64,000 nucleotides of DNA, from sequence record PZ295659.1, one strand, 5' to 3'. The notes beneath the pieces were generated by a model that did no database searches, was not told the DNA's origin, and saw only the letters and a list, made by a program, of their open reading frames with translations. This document shows, in pieces, positions 3,194 to 60,242 of the stretch; the stretch's first letter is position 1, and the number at the start of each line of letters is the position of its first letter. This DNA is from a phage. Made by a program: the position numbers and the translations under genes.

Positions 3194-3210
3194 TTCAATT
3201 TCCTCTGTAG

Positions 3211-3251
3211 TTGATAGAAAGATAGTAACACAGTATGCGATGCTTGTAAAC
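3211..3251 (-). promoter_or_regulatory. early promoter (GTTTAC -35 type) for lipoprotein gene
   Basis: plus gtaaac at 3246-3251, stem-loop-like gatagaaagatagtaacac, GAGGA SD and ATG at 3193. Confidence 0.45.
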
Positions 3252-3973: not shown

Positions 3974-4039
3974 TTTGTTCTCCTCTTGGTTGGTGTAAGT
4001 ACATCATATCATGCCTAGAGGAAGATGTAAACCCCGAAA

Positions 4040-19631: not shown

Positions 19632-19832
19632 TTATTCGTAGAAGTCGGTAACTGTCCATGCGGAATTGCGATTAGACATTATTTTATTATACTCATCTTT
19701 AAAAGCAGATTTGAGCATTTGTTCAGTAACAATATGTTCTTCACCTGAAAACGTATTGGTCAAAACATATTTTTTAATTTCAGGGACAACGAGAAGATGT
19801 TGGCCAGTTGAATACTCCATGTTGTTCTCCAT
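19632..19832 (-). CDS. hypothetical protein (45.2 position)
   Basis: 66-aa ORF. Confidence 0.5.
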   Translation of the reverse strand: MENNMEYSTGQHLLVVPEIKKYVLTNTFSGEEHIVTEQMLKSAFKDEYNKIMSNRNSAWTVTDFYE

Positions 19833-19874
19833 TTAATTTGATGTGGTCATTATAACCACATCGTGTTAAAGCAT

Positions 19875-24610: not shown

Positions 24611-24682
24611 AAGTACCTCTTAGCTCAATTCATAGGTCTATTATATCATAATATTTAGAGACCTATCTTAAAGCACGAGATA

Positions 24683-25505: not shown

Positions 25506-25535
25506 ATTATTTTCCTAGGTTATTTTATTATCCAA

Positions 25536-25570
25536 TGAGAGAATTATACTTTGCTCTCAAGAGTTTGTAT
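25536..25570 (-). promoter_or_regulatory. early promoter stem-loop (TTTACA-17-TATAAT), copy A
   Basis: ~45 nt about 90 percent identical to 55700-55748; inverted repeat gagagaa.../...ttgctctc brackets the -10. Confidence 0.45.
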
Positions 25571-25571
25571 A

Positions 25572-25811
25572 CTATTTTTTAAGCATGAAAAGTAAGTAAT
25601 TTGTATCACGTGGAGTAATATCAACACCCATATCAAAGATGCCTTTATAGATTGGGTATTTGTTTTCGGTTGTATCGAAGCTGAAACTATTTCCATCGCA
25701 TCTAACAGTAATAGCATCTGTTAAAATGTCATACTCAATCCTAACAATTGAATCCCCAATTTTAACGTCGAGGTGTTTTTTGAATTTGATAAAATCTAAT
25801 TCTTGGGCCAT
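25572..25811 (-). CDS. hypothetical protein
   Basis: 79-aa ORF. Confidence 0.45.
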   Translation of the reverse strand: MAQELDFIKFKKHLDVKIGDSIVRIEYDILTDAITVRCDGNSFSFDTTENKYPIYKGIFDMGVDITPRDTNYLLFMLKK

Positions 25812-25874
25812 GATATTTTCCTCGTTTTAAGACGATAGGAAGACATGTTATTATCTTCCTATCGTTGTACATTA

Positions 25875-26942: not shown

Positions 26943-26955
26943 TTTATTTTCCTCT

Positions 26956-26999
26956 ATAGTAGATGGCTTAATCTTAACACATCTATTGAGGATGTAAAC
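26956..26999 (-). promoter_or_regulatory. early promoter (GTTTAC -35)
   Basis: plus gtaaac 26994-26999; -10-like TAAGAT; sits between terminator and next gene. Confidence 0.45.
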
Positions 27000-28046: not shown

Positions 28047-28517
28047 TTAATCATGTTTCCACACCCCATCGGTATTTGACCAAAGTCGCTGATTATCTGA
28101 TCCTCGCCACAGTTTTTTGGTCGGAAGATTTTTCTCATACTTCCCATCAATAATAACATCAACATATTTAAGCATTTCTAGTTGTTTAATATCTTCAAAC
28201 TTATATCCTGTCCACAACCAAATGCTTTTATTGGGATAAAGATTTTTTACTGTTTGAACAATGCAATGAACAACATCTCGGTTATCAGGATAGAGAGGGT
28301 CTCCTCCAGTTATAGTTAATCCTTCTATATAATCATTATTCAAACATTCAATTAATTGTTCTAGCGTTTCACCAGTGAATGGAACGCCATTTCTAGCATT
28401 CCATGTTGATTTATTATAACACCCTTCGCATTTATGCAAACAACCGGTAACGAAAAGAACGACCCTGCAACCAGGGCCATTCACAAAATCACAGGGATAA
28501 AATCTATCATAATTCAT
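28047..28517 (-). CDS. nrdG: anaerobic ribonucleotide reductase activating protein NrdG (radical SAM)
   Basis: 156 aa; CX3CX2C-like GCRVVLFVTGCLHKCEGC; syntenic with nrdD. Confidence 0.9.
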   Translation of the reverse strand: MNYDRFYPCDFVNGPGCRVVLFVTGCLHKCEGCYNKSTWNARNGVPFTGETLEQLIECLNNDYIEGLTITGGDPLYPDNRDVVHCIVQTVKNLYPNKSIWLWTGYKFEDIKQLEMLKYVDVIIDGKYEKNLPTKKLWRGSDNQRLWSNTDGVWKHD

Positions 28518-30331
28518 TGGTGTTTAACCCTATGCATGATTTCTTTATTTTTGCCGAGATTAAATCCACGTTCGTTCGGATTTCCAAGATAACCGCATGT
28601 TCTTCTTATGGTGTTCATCTTTTTAGGATCAGTTTCTCCACAAATAGAACAAACAAATCCGTTTTCAGTAGGAGTCATTTCATGGGTACTTCCACACGTA
28701 AAACATTTATCTACTGGCATATTAACACCAAAATAATCTAAATGTTGCGCAGCATAATCCCATACAGCCTCAAGACCTTTTAGGTTATTTTTCATATCAG
28801 GAAGTTCAACATAAGAAATGTGACCGCCAGTCGCAATGAAATGATATGGGGCTTCGCGAGAAATCTTTTCAAACGGAGTAATATTTTCTTCTACTGAAAC
28901 ATGGAAACTATTAGTGTACCATCCTTTATCAGTAACATCTTTTACACTTCCATATTTTTCAGTATCGAGTTTACAGAAGCGATAGCACAGGTTTTCAGCA
29001 GGAGTAGAATACAAGCTAAAAGCAAAACCGGTTCTTTCAGTCCACTGCTTAAGACGAGCATTCATTTTAGTTAAAATTTCTTGTCCAATATCACGACCGA
29101 CAAGAATATTCAATTCGTGAATACCAATGTATCCTAGGGACACTGAACTTCTACCGTTTTTAAATAACTCAATTATGTCGTCGTCAGGTTTAAGACGAAC
29201 CCCGAATGCACCTTCTTGGTAAAGAATAGGAGCAACAGTCGCTTTAACTCCTTTTAAGGAACTAATTCTACACATCAAAGCTTCAAAACATAAATCCATT
29301 CGTTCATTGAACAATTCGGTAAATTTCTGTTCATTGAACTGTGTTCCAATATAAGAATCTAACGCAATACGAGGAAGATTCAGTGTTACAACACCAAGAT
29401 TATTACGTCCATCAAGAATTTCATTACCAGTCGAATCTTTCCATACACTCAAGAAACTACGACAACCCATTGGAGAAACAGGAATAGATGAACCGGTGAT
29501 AGCTTTATTATTCTTAACTGAAATAATATCAGGATACATTCTTTTGCTTGCACACTCTAGAGCAAGCTGCTTAATATCATAGTTCGGGTCGTCTTTATAA
29601 AGATTGACACCCTCTTCAACGAACATAACAAGTTTAGGGAAAATAGGAGTTATTCCATCACGACCAAGGCCTTTAATACGGTTTTTAAGAATTGCCTTCT
29701 GAATAATTCGTTCAGTCCAGTCAGTTCCAGTACCAAATGTAATTGTTACAAAAGGCGTTTGCCCGTTTGAACTAAAGAGAGTATTTACTTCGTATTCATA
29801 CGCTTGGAATGCATCGTATACGTCTTTTTCTGTTTTAGATTGGGCATAATTCAACGCATCAGCGATTTGCCATTTTTCTGCATCCTCAATATGTTTTGCA
29901 TAGGTGCGTTTAACATAAGGAGAAAGTACTTTATCTACATTCGCAAAAGTCGTTCCGCCATATTGATGGGAAGCAACCTGTGCAGTAATTTGTGCCATAA
30001 TTGCAGTAGCAACGCCGATTGATTTAGGAGTTTCAATCTGTGCATTACCTAGCTTAAATCCGTTTTCAAGCATTCCTTTTAAATCTACTAAACAGCAATT
30101 AGTAAATGGAAGAGCAGGGGAATAATCAATATCATGGAAATGGATAATTCCGCTTTCATGTGCTTTCATAATAAAAGACGGGACCATATTTTTGGCAATG
30201 TGCTTAGACACAATACCAGCCATAAGGTCCCGTTGAGTTGGAAAAACACGAGAATCTTTATTAGCATTCTCGTTCAAAAGATCTTTATTAGTTTTATGAA
30301 TTAATCCTTCAATTTCTTTTTCAATTTTCAT
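28514..30331 (-). CDS. nrdD: anaerobic ribonucleoside-triphosphate reductase NrdD
   Basis: 605 aa; C-terminal glycyl-radical motif RRTCGYLGNP; colinear with T4 NrdD. Confidence 0.95.
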   Translation of the reverse strand: MKIEKEIEGLIHKTNKDLLNENANKDSRVFPTQRDLMAGIVSKHIAKNMVPSFIMKAHESGIIHFHDIDYSPALPFTNCCLVDLKGMLENGFKLGNAQIETPKSIGVATAIMAQITAQVASHQYGGTTFANVDKVLSPYVKRTYAKHIEDAEKWQIADALNYAQSKTEKDVYDAFQAYEYEVNTLFSSNGQTPFVTITFGTGTDWTERIIQKAILKNRIKGLGRDGITPIFPKLVMFVEEGVNLYKDDPNYDIKQLALECASKRMYPDIISVKNNKAITGSSIPVSPMGCRSFLSVWKDSTGNEILDGRNNLGVVTLNLPRIALDSYIGTQFNEQKFTELFNERMDLCFEALMCRISSLKGVKATVAPILYQEGAFGVRLKPDDDIIELFKNGRSSVSLGYIGIHELNILVGRDIGQEILTKMNARLKQWTERTGFAFSLYSTPAENLCYRFCKLDTEKYGSVKDVTDKGWYTNSFHVSVEENITPFEKISREAPYHFIATGGHISYVELPDMKNNLKGLEAVWDYAAQHLDYFGVNMPVDKCFTCGSTHEMTPTENGFVCSICGETDPKKMNTIRRTCGYLGNPNERGFNLGKNKEIMHRVKHQ

Positions 30332-33825: not shown

Positions 33826-33849
33826 AATATTTTCCTCTCGTTAAGATAG

Positions 33850-33883
33850 ATTCATTATACTCCAACCATCCTTGGTTGTAAAC
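33850..33883 (-). promoter_or_regulatory. early promoter GTTTAC-18-TATAAT with internal inverted repeat
   Basis: minus CAGTTTACAACCAAGGATGGTTGGAGTATAATGAATC; similar element at 34845-34876. Confidence 0.5.
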
Positions 33884-34820: not shown

Positions 34821-34844
34821 TTTATATTCCTCATGTTGAAAAAT

Positions 34845-34876
34845 TTATTATACTCCAACCATCCTTGGTTGTACAT
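34845..34876 (-). promoter_or_regulatory. early promoter, second copy of CCAAGGATGGTTGG type
   Basis: ttatactccaaccatccttggttgtaca shared with 33850-33883. Confidence 0.45.
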
Positions 34877-36461: not shown

Positions 36462-36475
36462 GTTTTACCTCCAGT

Positions 36476-36517
36476 AGTTGATAGGTCTATAATAACATAA
36501 CCATAGACCTTGTAAAC
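36476..36517 (-). promoter_or_regulatory. early promoter stem-loop (PeSL)
   Basis: plus gtaaac 36512-36517; inverted repeat ataggtctat...atagacct around TATTAT -10; GGAGGT SD. Confidence 0.5.
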
Positions 36518-36519
36518 AA

Positions 36520-36807
36520 CTAAAAGAAACTTTTTTCGGTATTTTTTCCACTGAACCAAACCGATTTCGGAATTTTCTGTGATTTTTCAGATTTAAGTTT
36601 CTCTTCCTGTTCTTTCTTATATGCATCCTTGTCGTACTGGAACAACTCTAGGGCATTCTTTTGTAGACGGTCTAAGGTAATTAAGGCTTTAGTTTTTCCT
36701 TTCAAGGAAGAGTCCTGGCGAACCTCCTCGCTATATTGCATCGTAGAACTAACCATACGATGAGCATAGAGTTCTACTGCGGCTTTAATTTTTTGCATAA
36801 AATCCAT
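36520..36807 (-). CDS. hypothetical protein
   Basis: 95-aa ORF. Confidence 0.45.
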   Translation of the reverse strand: MDFMQKIKAAVELYAHRMVSSTMQYSEEVRQDSSLKGKTKALITLDRLQKNALELFQYDKDAYKKEQEEKLKSEKSQKIPKSVWFSGKNTEKSFF

Positions 36808-36945
36808 AACATATCCTCTTTGATTTGTACATCATTATTTTTAAATATTTCTATGCCCTCAGTAGGTTCCTGGTGTCCTTCTTTGAGGTAAGCCATATGA
36901 TTATTCATCTTTATGGCTTTTGTTACCTCAGAACTTCCTATAAGC

Positions 36946-37947
36946 TTATTTCAGTAAAGTAACTTCAGAGATTTCCTCCCAACCATCTTTATCAGTTGAA
37001 ATAAAATCTGCTACATAAAGAGCCGTACGTAATGATACATTGCGAAGACGAGATACGTTAGCCTTCATCCAGGACAATGCTTTATACGTTTCTGCATCTG
37101 TCAGACCACGTTTCTGCATCATGTCAGTAGATAATATTACATCTTCAACTCGAACCATAATCTCTTCATTAGAGTGTACTCCAAGGTCGAGATACACTGA
37201 ACGAGATACTAAAGCTTGAAGGTGTGGGGCAAGTTTCGAACCGCGTTCTAACTCTTTATCGATATCAACGTTTGTAATGAAAACGATAGTACCTTCAAAC
37301 TCAAATTCTTTATCAATACCCTTATCATCGAGATAAGATGACGCAGTGCTCCAGCAAACTTTGCGTTTATCTCCGGTATCTAATGCTGCTTTAAGAAGGT
37401 TCAAGATGTCCATATCTGAGAATACGTCAACGTCGTCGATTAAGAGAACGCTGTCTGCATCACGGTTGAGCCAAAGTTGTTCGTAAAGACCAATACCAGA
37501 GATTTTACCATTAATGCTTTTGTATTTGATGAAACCGTTATCATTAGCATTATTAAGCGCTTTATCCAGAGAATACGTCTTACCAATACCTGCTGCACCT
37601 GAAATAATGAGTGAACGAATTTTGCCATCGATAATGCCATTCGTCATCATGTTCATTACTTTAAAGCGTTTGTTGATACGAGTTTTCATATCTTCAGTGC
37701 TTTCAACAACTGCAACTGGTGATGTCTCAGCTCCTTCCATTATGATGTCTGATTTGAAGACCCATACTCCACGTTCAGAACCATCGATCATAACGAAAAT
37801 TTTACCGTCACCTAAGTGGGAACATTCAGGATTAAGCTTTGCCGGGAACCATGTCTTTGTGGCAACATAAGAACCAGAGATTTCGTTATTACGATAGATA
37901 CCTTTTTTGATTTGAACGTTGAACATTTTATTCTCCAATTTACTCAT
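36946..37947 (-). CDS. P-loop ATPase (AAA-like)
   Basis: 333 aa; Walker A ISGAAGIGKT, Walker B-like VLLIDDVD. Confidence 0.55.
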   Translation of the reverse strand: MSKLENKMFNVQIKKGIYRNNEISGSYVATKTWFPAKLNPECSHLGDGKIFVMIDGSERGVWVFKSDIIMEGAETSPVAVVESTEDMKTRINKRFKVMNMMTNGIIDGKIRSLIISGAAGIGKTYSLDKALNNANDNGFIKYKSINGKISGIGLYEQLWLNRDADSVLLIDDVDVFSDMDILNLLKAALDTGDKRKVCWSTASSYLDDKGIDKEFEFEGTIVFITNVDIDKELERGSKLAPHLQALVSRSVYLDLGVHSNEEIMVRVEDVILSTDMMQKRGLTDAETYKALSWMKANVSRLRNVSLRTALYVADFISTDKDGWEEISEVTLLK

Positions 37948-37954
37948 TTCGTTT

Positions 37955-37993
37955 CGATAGGTCTATAATAACATGTTTAAAGCAAAAGTAAAC
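37955..37993 (-). promoter_or_regulatory. early promoter stem-loop (PeSL)
   Basis: cgataggtctataataacat...gtaaac (37988-37993). Confidence 0.5.
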
Positions 37994-37995
37994 AA

Positions 37996-38214
37996 TTATT
38001 TGCGACGAGATTTTTTGGTAAGAGGTTGAAAGAACACTGCTTTACCTGCAGGAGTCAAAGTAACTCGTAATGCATTACCGATTCCCAAGGATGCTTTAAC
38101 AAGACCTTTAGATTTCAGTTCACCGAATGCTTGACGTTGGTCTGCATCACGAGTGTTAACCATAAGACCTTTATCACCAGCTTCACGAATCATTTCTAAC
38201 ATTTTGGTTTTCAT
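37996..38214 (-). CDS. hypothetical small protein
   Basis: Track ORF trimmed to ATG 38214 (GAGGAG SD) so it no longer overlaps its promoter. Confidence 0.45.
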   Translation of the reverse strand: MKTKMLEMIREAGDKGLMVNTRDADQRQAFGELKSKGLVKASLGIGNALRVTLTPAGKAVFFQPLTKKSRRK

Positions 38215-38230
38215 TTTGTTCTCCTCTTGT

Positions 38231-38271
38231 TTTGATAGGTCTATAATAACATATCCTAAAAGCATGTACAC
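38231..38271 (-). promoter_or_regulatory. early promoter stem-loop (PeSL)
   Basis: ttgataggtctataataacat with GTGTAC -35-like box. Confidence 0.45.
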
Positions 38272-38301
38272 TACTTTTTAAAAATATTTTGACCCCCTAA
38301 A

Positions 38302-38315
38302 GGGCCCGAAGGCCC
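38302..38315 (-). terminator. GC hairpin 3' of NTase-like gene (weak terminator)
   Basis: gggcc-cgaa-ggccc directly after stop codon; short U-tract only. Confidence 0.35.
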
Positions 38316-38318
38316 TTA

Positions 38319-39308
38319 TCATTTATAGTATGAATTGTGGTTTTCTAAGTAGACTTGCTCAAGGAAGTCATCCCAGAAACTCATATCTACTTTTTGCTGC
38401 ATACCATTCTTGGCAGCTTGTTCTGATGCTTGTTCAACTTGGTCAACGATATCTTCTAGGAATTCTTGTACAGTTTTAAATGTATGTTTACCAAGCTTAA
38501 CATCGAGAATAAATGGAGCATCCTGAAGTGGGTAAACCAGGTCGCCTGTTTTGTAAATTTCCAATAATTGAAGTCCACCACGACATGCATGACTCAATGC
38601 TTTCCAGTCAATACCTTCGTTAGCTTCTGCCTTACGAGCACGTTCACCATAGTTCTCTTCCAGTTTAACTAGGATGGCATTGAACTCTTTATTGGTTAAC
38701 GTGTCTTGGAATTTACGGTCTAACAGATTATAGAATGTTTGCTTACCTGTTTTCTCGTTTTCAGTTTCAACCCACGAAGCAAATTCACCTACAGGCAGAA
38801 CATTCTTCATATGTGATAAACGAATTACTGCACCATTATCAAAGTATTGTCCCCATTCGTTAGAACGTTTAAGGGCTTGACGAAGAACAGCCAGTCGAGA
38901 ACCCTTGACACCGTATTTAGAAGCTTGCTTACGGACATACCCTAAATAAGATTTCATGTTAGTAGTATAGAAACGAGACCTGTTATCTTGAATATACTTC
39001 CATACATCAGGCAAATCAGATTTAACTACTAAACTTGGTGGAGTGTGAAGCATATCTAATGCGACGGTTTCACCATCCGCAGCTAGTTTAAAGAAATATT
39101 TGAGACTATACAACTCATGGTCAACGTCGTCTTTTGTGTTCTTAGAAGATGTGTTATTCGTGTTCTTGCTCATGTGTTCTTTAACGTTACCGGTCAAGAT
39201 GTCACGAGCATGAGGGACATAAATTTCTTTAAAATCAACGTCAGATTCAGGAGTAGACGTTCCATAAAGGTGGCTACCAAAGTAGCCTTTCATAATTGTT
39301 TTCATCAT
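38319..39308 (-). CDS. Pol-beta-superfamily nucleotidyltransferase-fold protein
   Basis: 329 aa; N-terminal YFGSHLYGTSTPESDVDF (GS...DxD NTase motif). Confidence 0.55.
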   Translation of the reverse strand: MMKTIMKGYFGSHLYGTSTPESDVDFKEIYVPHARDILTGNVKEHMSKNTNNTSSKNTKDDVDHELYSLKYFFKLAADGETVALDMLHTPPSLVVKSDLPDVWKYIQDNRSRFYTTNMKSYLGYVRKQASKYGVKGSRLAVLRQALKRSNEWGQYFDNGAVIRLSHMKNVLPVGEFASWVETENEKTGKQTFYNLLDRKFQDTLTNKEFNAILVKLEENYGERARKAEANEGIDWKALSHACRGGLQLLEIYKTGDLVYPLQDAPFILDVKLGKHTFKTVQEFLEDIVDQVEQASEQAAKNGMQQKVDMSFWDDFLEQVYLENHNSYYK

Positions 39309-40499: not shown

Positions 40500-40623
40500 T
40501 TTACCATACTCGTTTCAATAAGATTCACTATGCCGTTTACCATGTTATAAGTAAACATCGGATAATTGTATTGTACTACAACATAAGCGATAAGCAAAAG
40601 TTTCATTTTGTTCTCCATTTGTT

Positions 40624-40664
40624 TTGGTAGGATTACTATATCATAGTCCTACCAAGACGTAAAC
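40624..40664 (-). promoter_or_regulatory. early promoter stem-loop (PeSL)
   Basis: gtaggattactatatcatagtcctac inverted repeat with GTTTAC -35. Confidence 0.5.
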
Positions 40665-41322: not shown

Positions 41323-41337
41323 AACGTTCTCCTCTAG

Positions 41338-41378
41338 TAAGTAAAGACTACTATAACACAACCTGAGGAGAAGTAAAC
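41338..41378 (-). promoter_or_regulatory. early promoter stem-loop (PeSL)
   Basis: gtaaac 41373-41378; inverted repeat tcctc...gaggag around TATAGT. Confidence 0.5.
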
Positions 41379-41386
41379 TGCTAAAT

Positions 41387-41416
41387 GCAAAAAAGCCCCA
41401 ACCTTTCGGAAGGGGC
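41387..41416 (-). terminator. rho-independent terminator (copy 1 of a repeated hairpin)
   Basis: Minus strand GCCCCUUCCGAAAGGUUGGGGC then U6; same hairpin recurs at 57493-57521. Confidence 0.55.
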
Positions 41417-44951: not shown

Positions 44952-44960
44952 TTTGATTTC

Positions 44961-45008
44961 TCCTCTAGTTGACAGGTCTATAGTAACACAACTAGAGGAG
45001 AAGTAAAC
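44961..45008 (-). promoter_or_regulatory. early promoter stem-loop (PeSL) upstream of regB
   Basis: 12-bp inverted repeat ctcctctagttg/caactagaggag around TATAGT, gtaaac at 45003-45008. Confidence 0.5.
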
Positions 45009-47094: not shown

Positions 47095-47424
47095 TTATAC
47101 TCTAGGCTTTTGAGCTTGTTTGGTATTGGATTCCCATGCGGCTTTGGTAATTTTGTTAGCGGCATAACCAAAGGCACTAGATAGAACACCTTTAGAGTTG
47201 AATACATCCAATCCAATAAGTACACCGGCTGTGTTAAATTTAGGAGCAAAGTACGCATTAGTTTTAGAAAGAGCTTTTTTCAATTCAGGGTCTTGAACCA
47301 AGCCATCAAAAACGCCTTTACTATTTACTTTATATGTTACTTTGGGATTTTTAGCTTCTTCGATAGCAGCTTTCTGTTCCGCAGATAATGTAACTTCAGT
47401 GATAAACTCTTGATATGTTTTCAT
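47095..47424 (-). CDS. internal-protein-like (Ip) with capsid targeting sequence
   Basis: N-terminus MKTYQEFITE matches T4 internal protein CTS (MKTYQEFIAEA) with LxE-type gp21 cleavage context. Confidence 0.65.
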   Translation of the reverse strand: MKTYQEFITEVTLSAEQKAAIEEAKNPKVTYKVNSKGVFDGLVQDPELKKALSKTNAYFAPKFNTAGVLIGLDVFNSKGVLSSAFGYAANKITKAAWESNTKQAQKPRV

Positions 47425-47465
47425 ATGTTTCCTTTAAATGTAAATAGGCCTAAGTATAGGCCTTA

Positions 47466-48044
47466 TTAATTACCACGGGCTGCATTAGCAACGGCATAAG
47501 CGTACTGAACATTAGCGTCTTTAAACGTACCTTTAGAGGTATCTATTTCTGCCTTAAAGCCGCCTTTAGCCATAACATCGGCAAATTCTTTACGGAAAGC
47601 CATTGCATCAAGACCTTTCCATGATGATTTGTGCTTGGCGAATTCAAGACCAGCGTAGTTGACAGCCTTAGCTAATTTATTATCAATAACCCATTTACCG
47701 GCTTTAGGCACAAACTTCGGGCCTTTTTGTTTAGAGAACAGTTTTAAATTCCAGCGACGAAGATCACTGTCGGCTTTAACAAAAGCTGCGTCTAAGTTAC
47801 TAGCAACAACATCTTCAATATGAGCAAATTTAAGTCCGTCAACTTCAATATTTAGATCGTTACGCCAGCGAAGTCCTTCCCAAGCGAAGGCTTTAAAATC
47901 AGAAGCTTTTGTGGCTAGATATCGTTCAATTGGAGCAGTTTTAGGGTCAAAGCCGTTTCCACCACGATAAGTCCACTCGTCCTTATTAATGCCTTGAGCT
48001 TTTCCTGCAAAGGCCTCGGCGATAAATTCTTTATACGTTTTCAT
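47466..48044 (-). CDS. internal-protein-like (Ip) with capsid targeting sequence
   Basis: N-terminus MKTYKEFIAEA; 192 aa. Confidence 0.65.
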   Translation of the reverse strand: MKTYKEFIAEAFAGKAQGINKDEWTYRGGNGFDPKTAPIERYLATKASDFKAFAWEGLRWRNDLNIEVDGLKFAHIEDVVASNLDAAFVKADSDLRRWNLKLFSKQKGPKFVPKAGKWVIDNKLAKAVNYAGLEFAKHKSSWKGLDAMAFRKEFADVMAKGGFKAEIDTSKGTFKDANVQYAYAVANAARGN

Positions 48045-48169
48045 TTTTGTTTCCTTGTTTGTTTTGATAGAGTAATTATACCATATTAATACTTAAGCGT
48101 AAACTGTTTAAGCTTTACCGCCGGAAATAATTCCGAAGTTGTTAAAATCGTATCCAATATCGTCAACAT

Positions 48170-48367
48170 CTACTTTAGGCTTGCTACAACATAAGCAATT
48201 TCACTACGTTTTGCATAGGTGTTGATTTCTTTACCATCGCCACCTAAGAAAAAATACCCATTACGTTTTAATGAGCCAAAGTCTTCCGCATCACCAATGA
48301 AAGCTTTAACTTTAAATTTAGGACCTTTGGCATCTGCTTCAGCGATAAATTCTTGATACATTTTCAT
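48170..48367 (-). CDS. internal-protein-like (Ip) with capsid targeting sequence
   Basis: N-terminus MKMYQEFIAEA; 65 aa. Confidence 0.55.
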   Translation of the reverse strand: MKMYQEFIAEADAKGPKFKVKAFIGDAEDFGSLKRNGYFFLGGDGKEINTYAKRSEIAYVVASLK

Positions 48368-48373
48368 TTTTCC

Positions 48374-48787
48374 TTAGTAAATTGATTTACCATAGTATTT
48401 GTACCAAGTAGGACGTTGAGCAATTTTTTCATCTAAGCGTGCTTGACTTATCGCAATGGACGCTTCTGACGGGACATAATTATTACGAAATTCGGCAGGG
48501 ATGTCAGAAATATCCTGAACAGTCGTGTCCTTGATTTTGAAACCACGTTTCAAGCATTCAGCGATTAGCTCGATTTGTCGTAAACGTAAAAATTCGAGTT
48601 TGTCGTAAAAGAATGTTACGTGACCTGTGCCTAAGATAAATGTTGGAGAGATTTTAAAATCCTTTACACGTTTACCGTTTTGAACATGTTTACGGACCGC
48701 ACCAAATACGCGTGGTAATTCACGATACTCAGCCATAAGATGTTGGTCGGTCAGTTCAGAAACAAGTGTTAAATTGATACGAGTCAT
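48374..48787 (-). CDS. denV: endonuclease V (pyrimidine dimer DNA glycosylase) DenV
   Basis: [35 protein letters not shown]... colinear with T4 DenV; start at ATG 48787. Confidence 0.9.
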
Positions 48788-48794
48788 AATTTCC

Positions 48795-48844
48795 TCCAAG
48801 TAGTTGATGAATGTATAGTATCAAAGTCCTTGGAGGAAGTAAAC
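48795..48844 (-). promoter_or_regulatory. early promoter stem-loop (PeSL) upstream of denV
   Basis: inverted repeat cctccaag.../...cttggagg, gtaaac at 48839-48844. Confidence 0.45.
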
Positions 48845-48845
48845 A

Positions 48846-49127
48846 CTATTTTTCTGAAGCGCCCGAAATATATTTTTCAAGACGTTGTTTCATCAGCGAA
48901 CCGTTCTTGGCGATTTCTTCCGGTTTATCACACATACGCAACAAGGCTTCAAGCTTAACGATATCACTGGTACGTTCAAATTTGCGAGTATCTATCTTAC
49001 TAGCAAGTTCAGAAATACGTGCTAATAGACTTTCAGCTTCAACCAAAGCTGCACCTAGCTTAGTTGCAAATGTGTCAGTAGCTTCGTTAAGAATAGATTC
49101 TGATAAAAATTCACTATATGTTTTCAT
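48846..49127 (-). CDS. internal-protein-like (Ip) with capsid targeting sequence
   Basis: [11 protein letters not shown]-terminus; ATG overlaps stop of lysozyme gene. Confidence 0.6.
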
Positions 49128-49612
49128 ATATACGCTTTCCAAGTTCCTGTTTTAAATGTTGAGATTACGCGTTTCGCACGATTAGGTGTCTGACGATACC
49201 ATTTAGATTGGGCTAGATTTACTGCCGCTTCGTCCCAACGTTTCTGTTGAAGCATACGAAGAGAATTAGTAAAACCAGCGACGCCTGCTACACCCATTTG
49301 GAAGACCATATTAACCAATGCACATCGACGAACTGCATCTAAAGAATCATATACCGGTTTAAGTTTAGCATTACCCAAGATTCCGCGAACGGCTTTATCA
49401 ACGTCTTCATTAAATAGCTTTTCGGCCTCATCAAGGGTAATTGTACCGTTGCATTTACGTCCGATCATTCTGTCAAGTTCAGCTTTAGCTACGGCTAAAG
49501 ACGGGTTCTTTGTTACTAAATGACCTATGCCAATCGTCCAAAAGCCTTCAGTGTCTTTGTATAAAGTCAGTCTAAGACCTTCGTCATTACGAAGCATTTC
49601 AAATATATTCAT
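49124..49612 (-). CDS. e: lysozyme (endolysin) E
   Basis: [32 protein letters not shown]... catalytic E11/D20/T26 context as T4 lysozyme. Confidence 0.95.
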
Positions 49613-49646
49613 AATACCTCCCACGTTTATAGGAGGTATTTATTAC

Positions 49647-51586: not shown

Positions 51587-51605
51587 AATATTCTCCTCAT
51601 GTTTT

Positions 51606-51644
51606 AATAGGACTACTATAACATAATCCTATAATTGTGTAAAC
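51606..51644 (-). promoter_or_regulatory. early promoter stem-loop (PeSL)
   Basis: ataggactactataacataatcctat with gtaaac at 51639-51644. Confidence 0.5.
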
Positions 51645-52641: not shown

Positions 52642-52893
52642 TTAAATTTCACGACATGCGGTATCATATTCATCCCAGAGGTCATCGTGTGAAGCCTCTA
52701 CCAATGGAACGATTGTACCATTTATATCTTCATTATAAGGACAAATTGTACAATGTGCATCTTCGAATCGGATGCCTTTGTGTTCAGATTTTTTATAACG
52801 CATATCGAATATCTTTGCAAACTTTTCACGAGTAATGGTTTTAGCAACCACTTCGGTTCTAATACTTTCGTAATAAATCATTGTGGGCTCCAT
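52642..52893 (-). CDS. hypothetical protein
   Basis: 83-aa ORF. Confidence 0.45.
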   Translation of the reverse strand: MEPTMIYYESIRTEVVAKTITREKFAKIFDMRYKKSEHKGIRFEDAHCTICPYNEDINGTIVPLVEASHDDLWDEYDTACREI

Positions 52894-52898
52894 TTAAT

Positions 52899-52939
52899 TT
52901 GATAGGACTACTATAACATAGCCCTATCTTGTTGTAAAC
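52899..52939 (-). promoter_or_regulatory. early promoter stem-loop (PeSL)
   Basis: gataggactactataacatagccctatc with gtaaac at 52934-52939. Confidence 0.5.
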
Positions 52940-55677: not shown

Positions 55678-55711
55678 ATTATTACCTTTCAATTGGTGGT
55701 TTATTATCCAA

Positions 55712-55748
55712 TGAGAGCATTATACTCTGCTCTCAAGAGTTTGTAAAT
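55712..55748 (-). promoter_or_regulatory. early promoter stem-loop (TTTACA-17-TATAAT), copy B
   Basis: Near-identical to 25536-25570. Confidence 0.45.
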
Positions 55749-55975: not shown

Positions 55976-55989
55976 TTTGTTTCTCCTCT

Positions 55990-56034
55990 GTAGTTGATAA
56001 GTCTATAGTATCACCATCCTTGGTGCTTGTACAT
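55990..56034 (-). promoter_or_regulatory. early promoter with CACCAAGGATGGTG inverted repeat
   Basis: Hybrid of PeSL and CCAAGGATGG promoter types. Confidence 0.4.
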
Positions 56035-56348: not shown

Positions 56349-56405
56349 AACATTCTTCTCATTAATAGGGCTCATAATATCTCAATCATAAGCCCATGTA
56401 AACAA

Positions 56406-56669: not shown

Positions 56670-56699
56670 TTCATTCTCCAAGTTTTTCTGTATCGGTAG

Positions 56700-56740
56700 T
56701 TGATAGTTGTATAGTACCACAGAAGAACAGGGATGTAAAC
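56700..56740 (-). promoter_or_regulatory. early promoter stem-loop (PeSL)
   Basis: gtaaac at 56735-56740. Confidence 0.45.
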
Positions 56741-57404: not shown

Positions 57405-57492
57405 TTAAAATCCTTGAAATAATTTATCGGTTTGTTATTAATTATTTATTACTTTGGTATTATTAGTAACAGCATTCTCTGAGTGATTCAAA

Positions 57493-57521
57493 CTAAAAAG
57501 CCCCAACCTTTCGGAAGGGGC
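57493..57521 (-). terminator. rho-independent terminator (copy 2 of repeated hairpin)
   Basis: Same GCCCCUUCCGAAAGGUUGGGGC + U-tract as 41387-41416. Confidence 0.55.
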
Positions 57522-57833
57522 TAAGCCTTGCGGCAACCTTGTCGGGGTTCCACCTGCTAAGGCAAGTGTTTGTACGAAACGCCGGGATTCGAACCCGGTT
57601 ATTAAGCAGTTGACGCTACTCAATATTTTTAAAAGGCCATATCTCGACCATATCCGAACGTTCCGTCAAAAACGCTACTCGGCTTACGGCAAAGATATTT
57701 CCTCGAATCGATAATTCTGTGCGCCGTTTCTGCTGTGATGTAAGGGGATATTAACAAATCATAAAGATTTATTAAGACCAGTCCTTACGCAGGGAACATC
57801 AGTCCGACGACTTACCGGTAGCGACCCGGCTTC
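57522..57833 (-). ncRNA. possible small stable RNA / degenerate tRNA region
   Basis: ~310 nt without convincing ORF, relatively GC-rich, canonical T-arm CCGGG-TTCGAAT-CCCGG (plus 57582-57598) but no full cloverleaf found; ends at a terminator. Confidence 0.25.
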
Positions 57834-58178
57834 TTATTTTGGCATATCATCAATTTGCTCTCGACGCCGACGCCATAGATTAATCGCTTCATTAGCACAT
57901 TCGGCGTTTGGTATATGGCGGCAATAATATAATGATTCGCGTTTCTGGAACCGATGTTGCAACGGGATTTCGTTTAAAAGGTCTTTACGGTCAAAGTATT
58001 CAAAACTAGTTAACCCGGAACGATTTTTAAGGAACTTCCAATGGCCGAATTCATTTTGAACATAGATGTAATCTGCATGTTGGTATAACAAATTAATCAA
58101 TCGGTCTGAAATAACTGTATCATATTCGTTAAAATAAAACGTTAAATCATGAACTACCAGATAAATATTGCCTTTCAT
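57834..58178 (-). CDS. hypothetical protein
   Basis: Track ORF trimmed to ATG 58178 to avoid overlapping tRNA. Confidence 0.45.
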   Translation of the reverse strand: MKGNIYLVVHDLTFYFNEYDTVISDRLINLLYQHADYIYVQNEFGHWKFLKNRSGLTSFEYFDRKDLLNEIPLQHRFQKRESLYYCRHIPNAECANEAINLWRRRREQIDDMPK

Positions 58179-58196: not shown

Positions 58197-58273
<77 letters not shown>

Positions 58274-58279
58274 AATATA

Positions 58280-58353
58280 TGACCCAGACCAGATTCGAAC
58301 TGGTAACCTTTCCCTTATGAGGGGACTGCTGCTAACCGTTGAGCTACAGGGCC
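58280..58353 (-). tRNA. tRNA with anticodon CAU (Ile2 or Met)
   Basis: Acceptor GGCCCTG/CTGGGTC (one U-U mismatch), T-arm ACCAG-TTCGAAT-CTGGT, anticodon loop CTCATAA; D-stem weak. Confidence 0.5.
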
Positions 58354-59621: not shown

Positions 59622-59828
59622 CTATTCACCTTTTGCAATTTTATCCATAACGATAGCGATTAAGCCGATTAGAAATGCTACTACCAATGAGATAGAATTT
59701 TCTGTTGTTGTCAGTAGTCCGCAAATGAATCCTACAAACATCGAAAAACTAAAAGCCATTGAAGCAATTACTACAGCAACATTACGAATCAGTTCAGCGC
59801 GTTTCATTTTATTTCTCCATTTACTCAT
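59622..59828 (-). CDS. small membrane protein
   Basis: 68 aa, two hydrophobic helices. Confidence 0.5.
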   Translation of the reverse strand: MSKWRNKMKRAELIRNVAVVIASMAFSFSMFVGFICGLLTTTENSISLVVAFLIGLIAIVMDKIAKGE

Positions 59829-59834
59829 TTGATT

Positions 59835-59874
59835 TGATAGGACTACTATAACATAGTCCTATCAGCATGTAAAC
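59835..59874 (-). promoter_or_regulatory. early promoter stem-loop (PeSL)
   Basis: 10-bp inverted repeat gataggacta/tagtcctatc around TGTTATAG, gtaaac at 59869-59874. Confidence 0.55.
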
Positions 59875-59877
59875 TAC

Positions 59878-60165
59878 TTACAGAAGAGTTTTTGCAATAA
59901 TTTTAAGCTGAGCTACAGAAATATGCTTAGCTTTAAACAGTGCAGTCTCTTCAGCCGGAGAGATAACAATAGTAGCGCCATCTTTCTTAGCAGACCATCC
60001 ATCCCCTAAGTAAACAGTACCTTTTACTTCTTCGCCGTCAACCAGACTAATCATTGGTTTACCCTCGCGTCCTTTATTTGCTTTAATAACTTCAGAAGTA
60101 AGGGTTGCTTCGGTCAGAGTAGAAACGTTAGCAACAGGTGATATAAATTCTTTAAATGTTTTCAT
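59878..60165 (-). CDS. internal-protein-like (Ip) at the ipI locus next to 57B
   Basis: N-terminus MKTFKEFISP...LTEA; sits where T4 carries ipI. Confidence 0.55.
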   Translation of the reverse strand: MKTFKEFISPVANVSTLTEATLTSEVIKANKGREGKPMISLVDGEEVKGTVYLGDGWSAKKDGATIVISPAEETALFKAKHISVAQLKIIAKTLL

Positions 60166-60189
60166 TTTATTTCCTTGAGGTCGTTTATT

Positions 60190-60229
60190 TGATAGGATGA
60201 TAGTAACACACCATCATCCTTATGTAAAC
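60190..60229 (-). promoter_or_regulatory. early promoter stem-loop (PeSL)
   Basis: gataggatgatagtaacacaccatcatcc, gtaaac at 60224-60229. Confidence 0.5.
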
Positions 60230-60242
60230 TGTTTTGTGAAAA

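Follow-up and report, generated by a model that had tools for sequence, protein, structure and literature searches.

The DNA analysed here, a phage stretch of 64,000 nucleotides from sequence record PZ295659.1 (hereafter the window), carries 25 copies of an intergenic element that combines a promoter, in many copies a hairpin, and the following gene's ribosome-binding site. These elements are very probably early-promoter cassettes of the RB69 group of T4-type phages, with spacers tuned to form hairpins and with shared sequence blocks through which one cassette is joined to another, so that modules of a cassette and a gene are moved. An earlier, sequence-only reading of this DNA had noted a resemblance to the promoter-early stem-loops (PeSLs) of T4-type phages, and the two indeed share anatomy and genomic behaviour (PMC2839356). 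Sequence comparison supports their assignment as PeSL-type cassettes, which had previously been predicted in the RB69 lineage as promoters and had not been described as stem-loop shuffling joints.

Pieces of 3 kb and 25 kb from the window matched ~150 Mosigvirus genomes at 96-98.5% identity (including NHEP36, phi25-307, S143_2, and RB69), and by sequence the source is a Mosigvirus, an RB69-like T4-type coliphage. All genes of the window are carried by the minus strand in an RB69-like order (gene 43 region, nrdC, tk, vs/regB, denV/e, tRNAs, ipI, 57/1/3/2/4), so that the cassettes belong to the early, hyperplastic region that is classical for T4-type genomes. Their distribution was uneven, with 21 cassettes at 24-64 kb, four at 2.4-4.1 kb, and none in the replication-gene block at 4.1-24 kb; as described for PeSLs, they cluster in variable regions beside small genes of unknown function.

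A repeated early-promoter cassette

The pattern GTTTAC-N17/18-TAnnnT was matched 26 times in the window, in 25 cases on the minus strand, whereas dinucleotide-preserving shuffles gave 2.1 ± 1.5 matches; both the motif and its excess over chance are direct observations. An independent unsupervised repeat search recovered the cassettes as the largest dispersed direct-repeat families of the window (D1-D4, D7, D8, D10, D12, and D20). For the catalogue, one mismatch in the -35 was allowed and an intergenic position ahead of a Shine-Dalgarno sequence (SD) and an ATG was required, which yielded 25 cassettes, named here by their higher coordinate. The sequence-only reading had spoken of at least 16 intergenic sites, which on this catalogue is an undercount, and the 15 sites that it named were all found where it had placed them, each with a minus-strand GTTTAC-like hexamer, 17-18 nt, TAnnnT, and SD plus ATG. 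The two further subfamilies that it proposed were recovered as well: cassettes 33883 and 34876 share 26 identical nt, and cassettes 25572 and 55748 are 92% identical over 62 nt, though 30 kb apart. Its statement that cassettes flank most accessory genes was too strong, as a cassette precedes 25 of the ~126 genes overall (about one in five) and 21 of the ~89 in the accessory part, and only nine single genes have a cassette on both sides.

Each cassette is laid out in the same order. An A-rich upstream block is followed by the -35, a 17-nt spacer, and a -10 extended by TGn; next come a C-rich discriminator, CTATCAA, and a leader, and the SD and ATG close the unit. The A-rich block 5' of the -35 is often TTCACAAAAC (recovered also as repeat family D8) and extends into the end of the preceding gene, and the leader is A-rich, unstructured, and ~22 nt long, with a probable range of 18-35 nt. 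At ~55-70 nt, the conserved unit is longer than the ~40-bp element that had first been described. PeSLs are defined, among other things, by a sigma70-type early promoter (-35, ~17 nt, -10) that an AT-rich region precedes, and by a 3' end that holds the SD and start codon of the next gene; both features were found here.

The early promoters of T4 consist of an upstream element, a -35, TGn, and a -10 (PMC2988021), and the cassette consensus matches this description in its extended form, with an upstream element, GTTTAC at -36 to -31, TGn, and TAnnnT on the gene strand and 5' of an early gene. The orthologous regions of T4 have the same promoter motif. Of the cassettes, 21 could be placed on RB69 coordinates, and every one of them falls on an early promoter that Nolan et al. 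2006 (PMC1524935) had predicted in that phage, at a constant offset of 8-19 nt that arises because the model of those authors begins in the upstream element. Judged by consensus, the repeated elements are sigma70-dependent early promoters of an RB69-group T4-type phage, and the role in early transcription that had been proposed for them is backed by the T4 consensus, by the bias in strand and position, and by the complete agreement (21/21) with the RB69 predictions. Taking the -10 as -12 to -7, transcription would start at the A of CCTATCAA.

Two classes of hairpin

The spacer, the -10, and the following 18 nt were folded for all 25 cassettes and scored (z) against shuffles. Eleven of the 25 reached z <= -2.7 when folded as RNA, and the DNA folds agreed. 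In class A, comprising 10-11 sites (60229, 59874, 56403, 55748, 52939, 51644, 40664, 36517, 25872, 2510, and, weakly, 25572), a stem of about 9-14 bp has its 5' arm in the spacer and its 3' arm running from the last bases of the -10 to ~+3. In class B, with five sites (48844, 45008, 41378, 26999, and 4032), an anti-SD placed directly after the -35, such as TTCTCCTC or TTCCTCC, pairs with the SD of the gene itself. No hairpin of note was found in cassettes 37993, 38271, 48104, 3251, 2821, and largely 56740, and cassettes 33883, 34876, and 56034 have just a 5-6 bp hairpin within the spacer. The stem-loop expected of a PeSL was present in 15-16 of the 25 cassettes (10-11 of class A and five of class B), which is about two thirds.

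The sequence-only reading had described the -10 as embedded in a loop closed by an inverted repeat of 8-12 bp, and this description held for seven of its 11 named examples (2471-2510, 36476-36517, 40624-40664, 51606-51644, 52899-52939, 59835-59874, and 60190-60229; RNA z -2.7 to -6.7, DNA z -3.1 to -6.1) and only partly or not at all for the other four. At 44961-45008, a 14-bp repeat does enclose the -10, but the spacer pairs with the SD; at 41338-41378 there is SD pairing only, as in class B; 37955-37993 has no hairpin, with a minimum free energy (MFE) of 0; and 38231-38271 retains only the degenerate remnant of a repeat. The cassettes are listed below, with z and MFE taken from the cassette folds and with Pe numbers denoting the early promoters of RB69 predicted by Nolan et al. 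2006.

60166-60229, minus: class A, internal-protein-like gene downstream; GGATGATGG/CTATCATCC around the -10; MFE -15.4, z -5.0; RB69 Pe:77187
59808-59874, minus: class A; TGATAGGACTAT/GTAGTCCTATCA, dyad between -12 and -11; MFE -17.7, z -6.7; RB69 Pe:76459
56670-56740, minus: cassette without a -10 hairpin, partial pairing of spacer and leader; terminator-like hairpin 100 nt upstream; RB69 Pe:73274
56349-56403, minus: class A; GGGCTTATGAT/ATTATGAGCCC; MFE -15.6, z -6.2; RB69 Pe:72936
55976-56034, minus: cassette with ATGTAC as -35; only a 5-bp CACCA/TGGTG hairpin in the spacer; RB69 Pe:72567
55678-55748, minus: class A with ATTTAC as -35; TGAGAGCA/TGCTCTCA; MFE -13.8, z -3.6; family D10; RB69 Pe:72069
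52882-52939, minus: class A; GATAGGGCTAT/GTAGTCCTATC, two sense-strand G.U pairs; MFE -16.0, z -6.0; RB69 Pe:69254
51587-51644, minus: class A; ATAGGATTAT/GTAGTCCTAT; MFE -10.4, z -3.0; RB69 Pe:67959
48788-48844, minus: class B; spacer TTCCTCCAAG with SD-containing CTTGGAGGAA; MFE -17.6; RB69 Pe:64934
48045-48104, minus: hairpin-free cassette, ipIII-like gene downstream; RB69 Pe:64193
44952-45008, minus: class B, regB downstream; 14-bp TTCTCCTCTAGTTG/CAACTAGAGGAGAA encloses -10 and start site and masks the SD; MFE -21.4; RB69 Pe:61376
41323-41378, minus: class B, intrinsic terminator upstream; TTCTCCTC with GAGGAGAA; MFE -13.0; RB69 Pe:58138
40607-40664, minus: class A; TTGGTAGGA/TCCTACCAA; MFE -15.9, z -5.2; RB69 Pe:57689
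38215-38271, minus: cassette with GTGTAC as -35; only a degenerate remnant of AGGTCTAT/ATAGACCT; z -0.3; RB69 Pe:55296
37927-37993, minus: cassette without any hairpin; MFE 0; RB69 Pe:55018
36462-36517, minus: class A; AGGTCTAT/ATAGACCT; MFE -13.4, z -3.5; RB69 Pe:53683
34821-34876, minus: cassette with ATGTAC as -35 and a small AACCA/TGGTT spacer hairpin; family D20; RB69 Pe:52042
33826-33883, minus: cassette of the same CCAAGGATGGTTGG subfamily as 34876; family D20; RB69 Pe:51019
26943-26999, minus: class B; TCCTC with GAGGA, inner ATAGATG/CATCTA stem; MFE -12.0; RB69 Pe:43945
25812-25872, minus: class A with ATGTAC as -35 and a weak -10; 12-14 bp ACGATAGGAAGA/TCTTCCTATCGT; MFE -20.1, z -7.9; RB69 Pe:42816
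25506-25572, minus: weak class A with GTATAC as -35; GAGAG/CTCTC; z -1.3; family D10; RB69 Pe:42515
3974-4032, minus: class B; TTCCTCT with AGAGGAG
3194-3251, minus: hairpin-free cassette by folds of the spacer/-10 and SD regions
2764-2821, minus: hairpin-free cassette; MFE 0
2452-2510, minus: class A; GATGGACTAT/ATAGTAGTCCTATC; MFE -11.1, z -2.7

In the pair 33883/34876, the AACCA/TGGTT hairpin lies within the spacer and not around the -10. The stem of cassette 40664 is 12 bp long in the relative TH58 and contains one G.U pair in RB69. Two cassettes follow GC-rich hairpins with a weak T-run that fell below a strict terminator scan, namely GGGCC-TTCG-GGCCC 47 nt upstream of cassette 38271 and GGAGAC-TTCG-GTCTCC ahead of cassette 4032.

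The pairing between spacer and downstream region was then assessed with chimeras, in which the 5' half of one site was combined with the 3' half of another across the 25 promoters. The native mean MFE was -8.4, compared with -5.0 ± 0.55 for the chimeras, and none of 10,000 permutations reached the native value; the test is conservative because several sites belong to one family. The co-variation of the stem arms can also be seen directly, in that arms that are wholly different among sites are nevertheless complementary within each (AGGTCTAT, GATAGGACTAT, GGATGATGG, GAGAGCA, GATAGGAAGA, and GGGCTTATGA). In the commonest register, which places the dyad between -12 and -11 and accounts for 28 of 42 strong hairpins (window, six relatives, and T4 taken together), both sides had changed at 10 of 15 pairs, giving 46 cells against 15.6 ± 2.8 in shuffles, and slid controls scored far lower. 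As these sequences had been picked for folding in that register, the count is biased upward, and significance rests on the chimera permutation.

Class A hairpins also followed a position rule, likewise a direct observation. The -35 of every class A cassette lies -1 to 13 nt from the upstream stop codon (19 cassettes are so placed, 11 of them class A), and none of the six cassettes that follow a gap of 29-108 nt belongs to class A (hypergeometric p = 0.017). Most of these gaps contain a GC-rich hairpin, and the rule suggests that the embedded hairpin would replace a separate intergenic one. Distance to the upstream stop codon was used as the variable instead of the presence of a terminator because the strict fold-based scan gave just two clear terminators, upstream of cassettes 56740 and 41378. 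Measured against an intrinsic terminator, that is a GC-rich stem directly followed by a U-run, the class A stems fell short, with tails of the ATCAAA type and no terminator called in 36-42 kb. The covariance models of Rfam 15 matched none of the cassettes, and only two tRNAs reached the gathering score in the whole window.

For the class B sites, the SD was predicted to be unpaired with a probability of 0.00-0.01 in read-through RNA and of 0.33-0.70 in the promoter's own transcript (48844, 0.00 versus 0.33; 45008, 0.00 versus 0.60; 41378, 0.01 versus 0.69; 26999, 0.01 versus 0.70; 4032, 0.00 versus 0.66), whereas in class A the SD remains free. Hairpins that mask the ribosome site have been demonstrated experimentally for the T4 genes e, soc, 49, and I-TevI (reviewed in PMC3014915). 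They resemble class B in that a promoter lies inside the hairpin, the 5' arm is an anti-SD, and long transcripts hide the ribosome site; by prediction, the SD and AUG are likewise paired in long transcripts at all five class B sites, with the 5' arm upstream of the internal start. The difference lies in timing, as the internal promoter of the T4 hairpins is a late (or middle) one that delays expression, while none of the class B internal promoters is of such a later class and all have the early consensus. With an early internal promoter, the class B device would separate transcripts by origin and not by time.

A hairpin of the classical kind was also seen in the window at 49613-49646 (minus strand), 5' of the lysozyme gene e (49124-49612), where TACCTCC-tataaacgt-GGGAGGTA masks the SD and the loop holds a TATAAA late-promoter-like motif. 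In the RB69 group, it corresponds to the classical translational hairpin of T4 gene e. Two promoters read from the sequence as middle-type have a hairpin around the -10:

24611-24682, minus: middle-type promoter with a GCTT MotA-box-like motif and TATAAT; ATAGGTCT/AGACCTAT flank the -10, class A architecture
19821-19874, minus: middle-type promoter with the -10 in the loop, GATGTGGT-tataatg-ACCACATC; RB69 Pm:36813 by coordinate offset

Cassettes at the joints of rearrangements

The 24-64 kb part of the window was aligned with RB69, S143_2, phi25-307, TH58, EP02SG, phiEC1, PhAPEC2, JN02, and phiC120, and the rearrangement boundaries were clustered into 79 unique ones, distributed as follows.

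Cassette spans: 5.1% of bases, 24 of 79 boundaries
Other gene junctions: 12.1% of bases, 24 of 79 boundaries
Inside genes: 82.8% of bases, 31 of 79 boundaries

Boundaries were thus enriched in cassette spans over other junctions (binomial p = 0.002), and a boundary was found at 16 of the 21 junctions with a cassette and at 18 of the 67 without (odds ratio 8.7, Fisher p = 8e-5). The modular gene shuffling that the sequence-only reading had proposed finds its support in these counts from nine relatives, although the link with breakpoints is partly expected from selection alone. As in PeSLs, indels and replacements between close relatives have their boundaries at the elements with the crossover inside, and the alignments contain at least eight gains, losses, or swaps of a single gene with a crossover in sequence common to two cassettes.

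One series concerns a 73-aa gene (37996-38214) that lies between cassettes 38271 and 37993 and has been lost twice independently. It is absent from TH58, EP02SG, and JN02 through a crossover in the shared ATGTTATTATAGACCTATC, which is common to cassettes 37993, 38271, and 36517, and absent from phiEC1 through a separate crossover in the shared GGAGAAnAAAATG. Extra genes were seen as well: RB69ORF145c and RB69ORF156c are two of these, both with an additional cassette behind them and with their junctions in the leader/ATG block; at cassette 56034, relatives have an extra gene and cassette inserted at the leader; and JN02 has an extra cassette with a 72-aa gene joined at the upstream/-35 block of cassette 51644. 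PhAPEC2 is without the gene at 25572-25811, downstream of cassette 25872, by way of a -35 to -35 crossover. A 43-nt cassette core (59874) stands downstream of a gene in the window and upstream of a different gene in phi25-307, and the alignments overlap at the junctions by 22-30 nt of shared cassette sequence. These sequence comparisons give good support to the view that cassettes are the joints at which single genes were gained, lost, or exchanged among close relatives.

At the internal-protein locus (59808-60242), gene content differs in every relative, the genes having been swapped around this 43-nt cassette, and at cassette 48104 relatives have an extra internal-protein-like gene joined in the shared leader and the codons of the targeting sequence. 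Polymorphism of the internal-protein locus is known from T-even phages (Repoila et al. 1994, as cited in PMC4122927). The locus of the window resembles it, as it too differs from relative to relative and is joined at promoter cassettes and N-terminal targeting codons, and by sequence it is an RB69-like instance of this polymorphism. A further observation concerns the repeats of family D5 (47395-47435, 48015-48055, 48338-48378, 49098-49138, and 60136-60176), through which five or six genes have the same ~30-nt start, encoding MKT(Y/F)(K/Q)EFI, a start that targets internal proteins to the capsid. One more gene of the internal-protein type is present in S143_2 and is joined to its neighbour exactly within the shared D5 coding block, a second type of recombination joint that is distinct from the promoter cassettes.

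Some other structures coincided with rearrangement points. Two GC-rich hairpins of the minus strand are such points too, one at 38291-38318 (weak T-run, just ahead of cassette 38271) and one at 41390-41416 (a clear intrinsic terminator, just ahead of cassette 41378): at 38312-38321, relatives have a 305-324 bp insertion with a small secreted-looking open reading frame (ORF), and TH58 has a 596-bp insertion at 41390-41416. The stems of the terminators vary between phages. A 138-nt intergenic region at 36808-36945 (minus strand) contains a long imperfect inverted repeat, GGAAGTTCTGAGGTAACAAAAGCCATA ... TATGGCTTACCTCAAAGAAGG, and coincides with a replacement boundary of RB69 and phiC120 (36768-36948).

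A possible mechanism

Since the genes run in the same direction and most junctions are free of terminators, each cassette would also be transcribed through from upstream. About two thirds of the cassettes appear to have a spacer, otherwise free, that is tuned to pair with bases 3' of the -10. In class A, it would pair with the discriminator and start region, with the -10 in the loop and the stem ending a few bases past the probable start; as the promoter's own transcript is without the 5' arm, the hairpins of both classes would form only in RNA initiated further upstream. On these models, the class A hairpin would act on read-through RNA as a compact substitute for an intergenic hairpin, providing a 3'-end barrier or an attenuator, and a class B gene would be translated from its own transcript and not from read-through RNA. 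The function of the hairpins would then be a 3'-end barrier, attenuation, or masking of read-through RNA.

The cassettes share blocks of 5-43 identical bases in the upstream/-35, -10/start, and SD/ATG regions, through which the highly active homologous and short-homology recombination of T4-type phages would join them, and such joining would insert, delete, or swap modules of a cassette and a gene that are expressible on arrival. Recombination of T4 at short homologies has been shown experimentally (PMC9391042), and as the homologies can be very short, no special enzyme would be needed for the joining of cassettes.

Related elements in other phages

The cassettes resemble the PeSLs of RB49 and phi1 (PMC2839356) in having an AT-rich upstream region, a sigma70-type -35 and -10, a stem-loop that lies between -35 and -10 or overlaps the -10, an SD, and an ATG, and in their intergenic position in variable regions, where they flank single small genes and lie at the boundaries of indels and replacements. 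They differ in the -35, which is TTGACA in RB49/phi1 and the T4-type (G)TTTAC here, and in the stems, which consist of G-tracts and C-tracts in RB49/phi1 and are AT-rich, varied, and without a following U-run in the window. The SD-masking subclass is a further distinction of the window cassettes. Promoter, terminator, and mini-circle activities have been measured in RB49/phi1 (PMC2839356).

Comeau et al. 2014 (PMC4122927) extended the PeSL concept to T4/PST and KVP40/nt-1. The T4/PST elements share with the cassettes the consensus TTTACW-N17-TAYWAT and the tie to swapped genes, including those of the internal-protein locus; the stem-loops of PST were placed just upstream of the promoter, while the stems of the window and of T4 straddle the -10. 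The predictions of Nolan et al. 2006 include the 21 mappable cassettes, many of them 5' of novel ORFs, and a preference for C at -3 to -1 that forms part of the 3' arm in the window, but the text makes no mention of hairpins, inverted repeats, or recombination. Within the literature collection searched, no paper linked PeSLs with RB69 or Mosigvirus.

In T4, a control scan of the orthologous 42 kb found hairpins straddling the -10 at six of 16 early promoters with z <= -2.5 (for example ipI and mobD.2a), and SD-masking hairpins as well, so that the feature is general among T-even phages. A 51-nt cassette query against an annotated phage collection matched 343 phage records, with ~1,200 cassette copies in all. 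Each Mosigvirus genome has six to seven of them, several Tequatrovirus genomes have a single one (92% identity), and JS98, Tegunavirus, Enterobacter phages, and Acinetobacter Lazarusvirus were matched as well. In IMG/VR, the exact pattern of the commonest cassette was present at only six loci, too few for use. The Acinetobacter phage Lazarus carries at 1201-1248 a cassette that is 85% identical over 48 nt to the commonest one of the window, with hairpin and ATCAAATCAAA leader. Cassettes of this type occur two to three per genome in Acinetobacter T4-like phages (Twarogvirinae, a different subfamily) and, by sequence, represent either deep conservation or transfer of a 48-nt regulatory unit. The hairpin was kept in Lazarus through a G-C to A-T exchange, and in phiR1-RT the promoter was kept and the hairpin lost.

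Competing explanations

PeSLs have been termed promoter-terminator motifs (Comeau 2014, PMC4122927), and one RB49 stem-loop reduced lacZ expression about as much as rrnB T1 (Arbiol 2010, PMC2839356). The main function of the hairpins could, as was proposed for PeSLs, be to terminate or strongly attenuate upstream transcription, and the restriction of class A hairpins to promoters that are not preceded by a separate intergenic hairpin would fit this. I consider it unlikely as the main function, as the class A hairpins lack a T-run and end in the tail ATCAAATCAAA, none looks like a terminator in 36-42 kb, the strict scan placed terminators only upstream of 56740 and 41378, and the AT-rich stems are unlike the G-tract/C-tract stems of RB49. 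An antisense terminator was ruled out, the T-rich complement of the upstream element being at least 12 nt from the stem. Sites for RNase III are improbable too, because the stems are too short.

The inverted repeats might instead act in phage DNA that is single-stranded or supercoiled, as hairpins or cruciforms that are cut by resolvases (endonuclease VII) or that pre-melt the -10, making the cassettes recombination hotspots or stronger promoters. The dyad falls between -12 and -11, where promoter melting begins, in the 28 of 42 strong hairpins; the DNA folds are significant, the cassettes are enriched at breakpoints, and the counts of G.U and A.C pairs give RNA no advantage. Yet crossovers were found in all shared blocks (upstream/-35, -10/start, and SD/ATG) and not specifically in stem or loop, hairpin-free cassettes recombine too, the SD pairing of class B makes sense only in RNA, and the dyad position ranges from 16.5 to 23. 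Injected T4-type DNA is linear, so that cruciform extrusion is not expected. An action in DNA is therefore judged improbable, and an operator function, in which a dimeric phage protein would bind the repeats and shut off the early promoters, more improbable by far. The repeats do overlap the -10 and start site, where a repressor would act, the shut-off of T4 early promoters is not understood (reviews PMC2988021 and PMC3014915), and the commonest arm, ATAGGACTA/TAGTCCTAT, recurs six to seven times per Mosigvirus genome and also in distant genera. Against this, the arms are wholly different yet complementary (AGGTCTAT, GGATGATGG, GAGAGCA, GATAGGAAGA, and GGGCTTATGA), the register shifts by up to 6 nt, and a third of the early promoters have no repeat. 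An operator common to all sites was rejected on the difference between the arms.

The cassettes may also not promote recombination at all, their likeness being convergence of strong early promoters on one consensus, and their place at indel boundaries following only from the need of viable insertions to fall between genes and bring a promoter. The similarity across genera is largely that of the promoter and leader consensus, phiR1-RT has the promoter without the hairpin, 24 of 79 breakpoints lie at cassette-free junctions and 31 inside genes, and T4 recombines at homologies of 2-10 bp anywhere (PMC9391042). Convergence is hard to reconcile, however, with paralogues that are identical at consensus-free spacer positions (26 nt in 33883/34876 and 92% of 62 nt in 25572/55748), with a 43-nt core that moved between genes, with junction alignments that share 22-30 nt of cassette sequence, and with the odds ratio of 8.7 per junction, and this explanation, too, has only a small chance of being right.

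Several results weigh against the interpretation as hairpin-bearing early-promoter cassettes that join through shared blocks. A meaningful hairpin is missing from eight or nine of the 25 cassettes, which makes the hairpin dispensable for promoter function and recombination, and the hairpin-free cassette 37993 itself took part in a crossover. Without a U-run, the class A hairpins are not canonical terminators. Strand asymmetry was used to compare selection on RNA with selection on DNA: the sense RNA folds better than the antisense in 32 of 41 cases, but this asymmetry is mostly due to a loop-closing T.G pair that arises from the conserved TGn and -10 bases; without it, there are 15 G.U-type cells against 18 of the A.C type. 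The enrichment of breakpoints over other intergenic junctions is only ~2.4-fold per base, and two confounders bear on it, namely that selection favours genes that are intact and expressed and that the nine relatives share ancestry. Selection must contribute to this pattern, and the share of recombination bias relative to it is something that I infer. Several rearrangements occurred without cassettes, at terminators, gene overlaps, or the shared N-terminal codons of internal proteins. Finally, early timing and start site are derived from the consensus and by analogy with T4; searches of a literature collection for transcript mapping in T4, this phage, or RB69 found none there.

Beyond the interpretation as tuned and recombining early-promoter cassettes, the promoter-embedded hairpin may, more tentatively, be a selected and widely conserved device that marks RNA coming from upstream and leaves the promoter's own transcript free. 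The read-through RNA would be 3'-capped, attenuated, or translationally masked, and if this is true, gene expression would depend on the gene's own promoter, which would make the module of cassette and gene insulated and portable. Points in favour are that the same hairpin architecture is seen at early, middle-type, and late-type promoters of the window, that it is present in T4, that an Acinetobacter phage shows a compensatory change, and that it occurs only at junctions without a separate intergenic hairpin.

Other features of the window

A non-coding stretch at 57517-57839 (minus strand), adjoining the tRNA genes, is 92.6% identical to the region of the T4 stable RNAs rnaC/rnaD, whose function is unknown. 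Part of it (57624-57833) folds with z = -3.2, and the stretch matched no Rfam family. A mechanically called ORF at 57438-57623, beside or over the rnaC-like region, is probably no gene, and breakpoints of relatives lie at ~57495-57521. The tRNA genes themselves are tRNA-Arg(UCU) and tRNA-Met(CAU), at 58197-58273 and 58280-58353 (minus strand), as in RB69; the annotation of PhAPEC2 has three tRNAs at the same locus. In nrdD (28514-30331), TH58 has insertions of 883 bp and 1049 bp, at 28517-28578 and ~29791-29796, which are absent from the window; as in T4 nrdD, they could represent an intron or a homing-endonuclease gene.

Significance

The observation from which this analysis started was real yet over-generalised, and its interpretation is supported: evidence from sequence and comparison gives good support both to the early-promoter function and to the use of the cassettes as recombination joints. 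This does not overturn current understanding, as the kind of element had already been described in other T4-type phages. It extends the PeSL idea to Mosigvirus, a large RB69-like genus widely isolated for phage therapy and biocontrol, and shows at the level of junctions, across nine genomes, evidence that accessory genes are moved singly, in modules of a promoter cassette and a gene that are ready for expression. The description of the element is refined by its division into two structural classes, of which class B would silence translation of read-through RNA, and by the absence of the hairpin straddling the -10 wherever a separate intergenic hairpin or a long spacer precedes the promoter. 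The same design is found in T4 and in Acinetobacter T4-like phages. The cassettes would predict the plastic sites of such genomes, and may offer natural insertion joints for their engineering.

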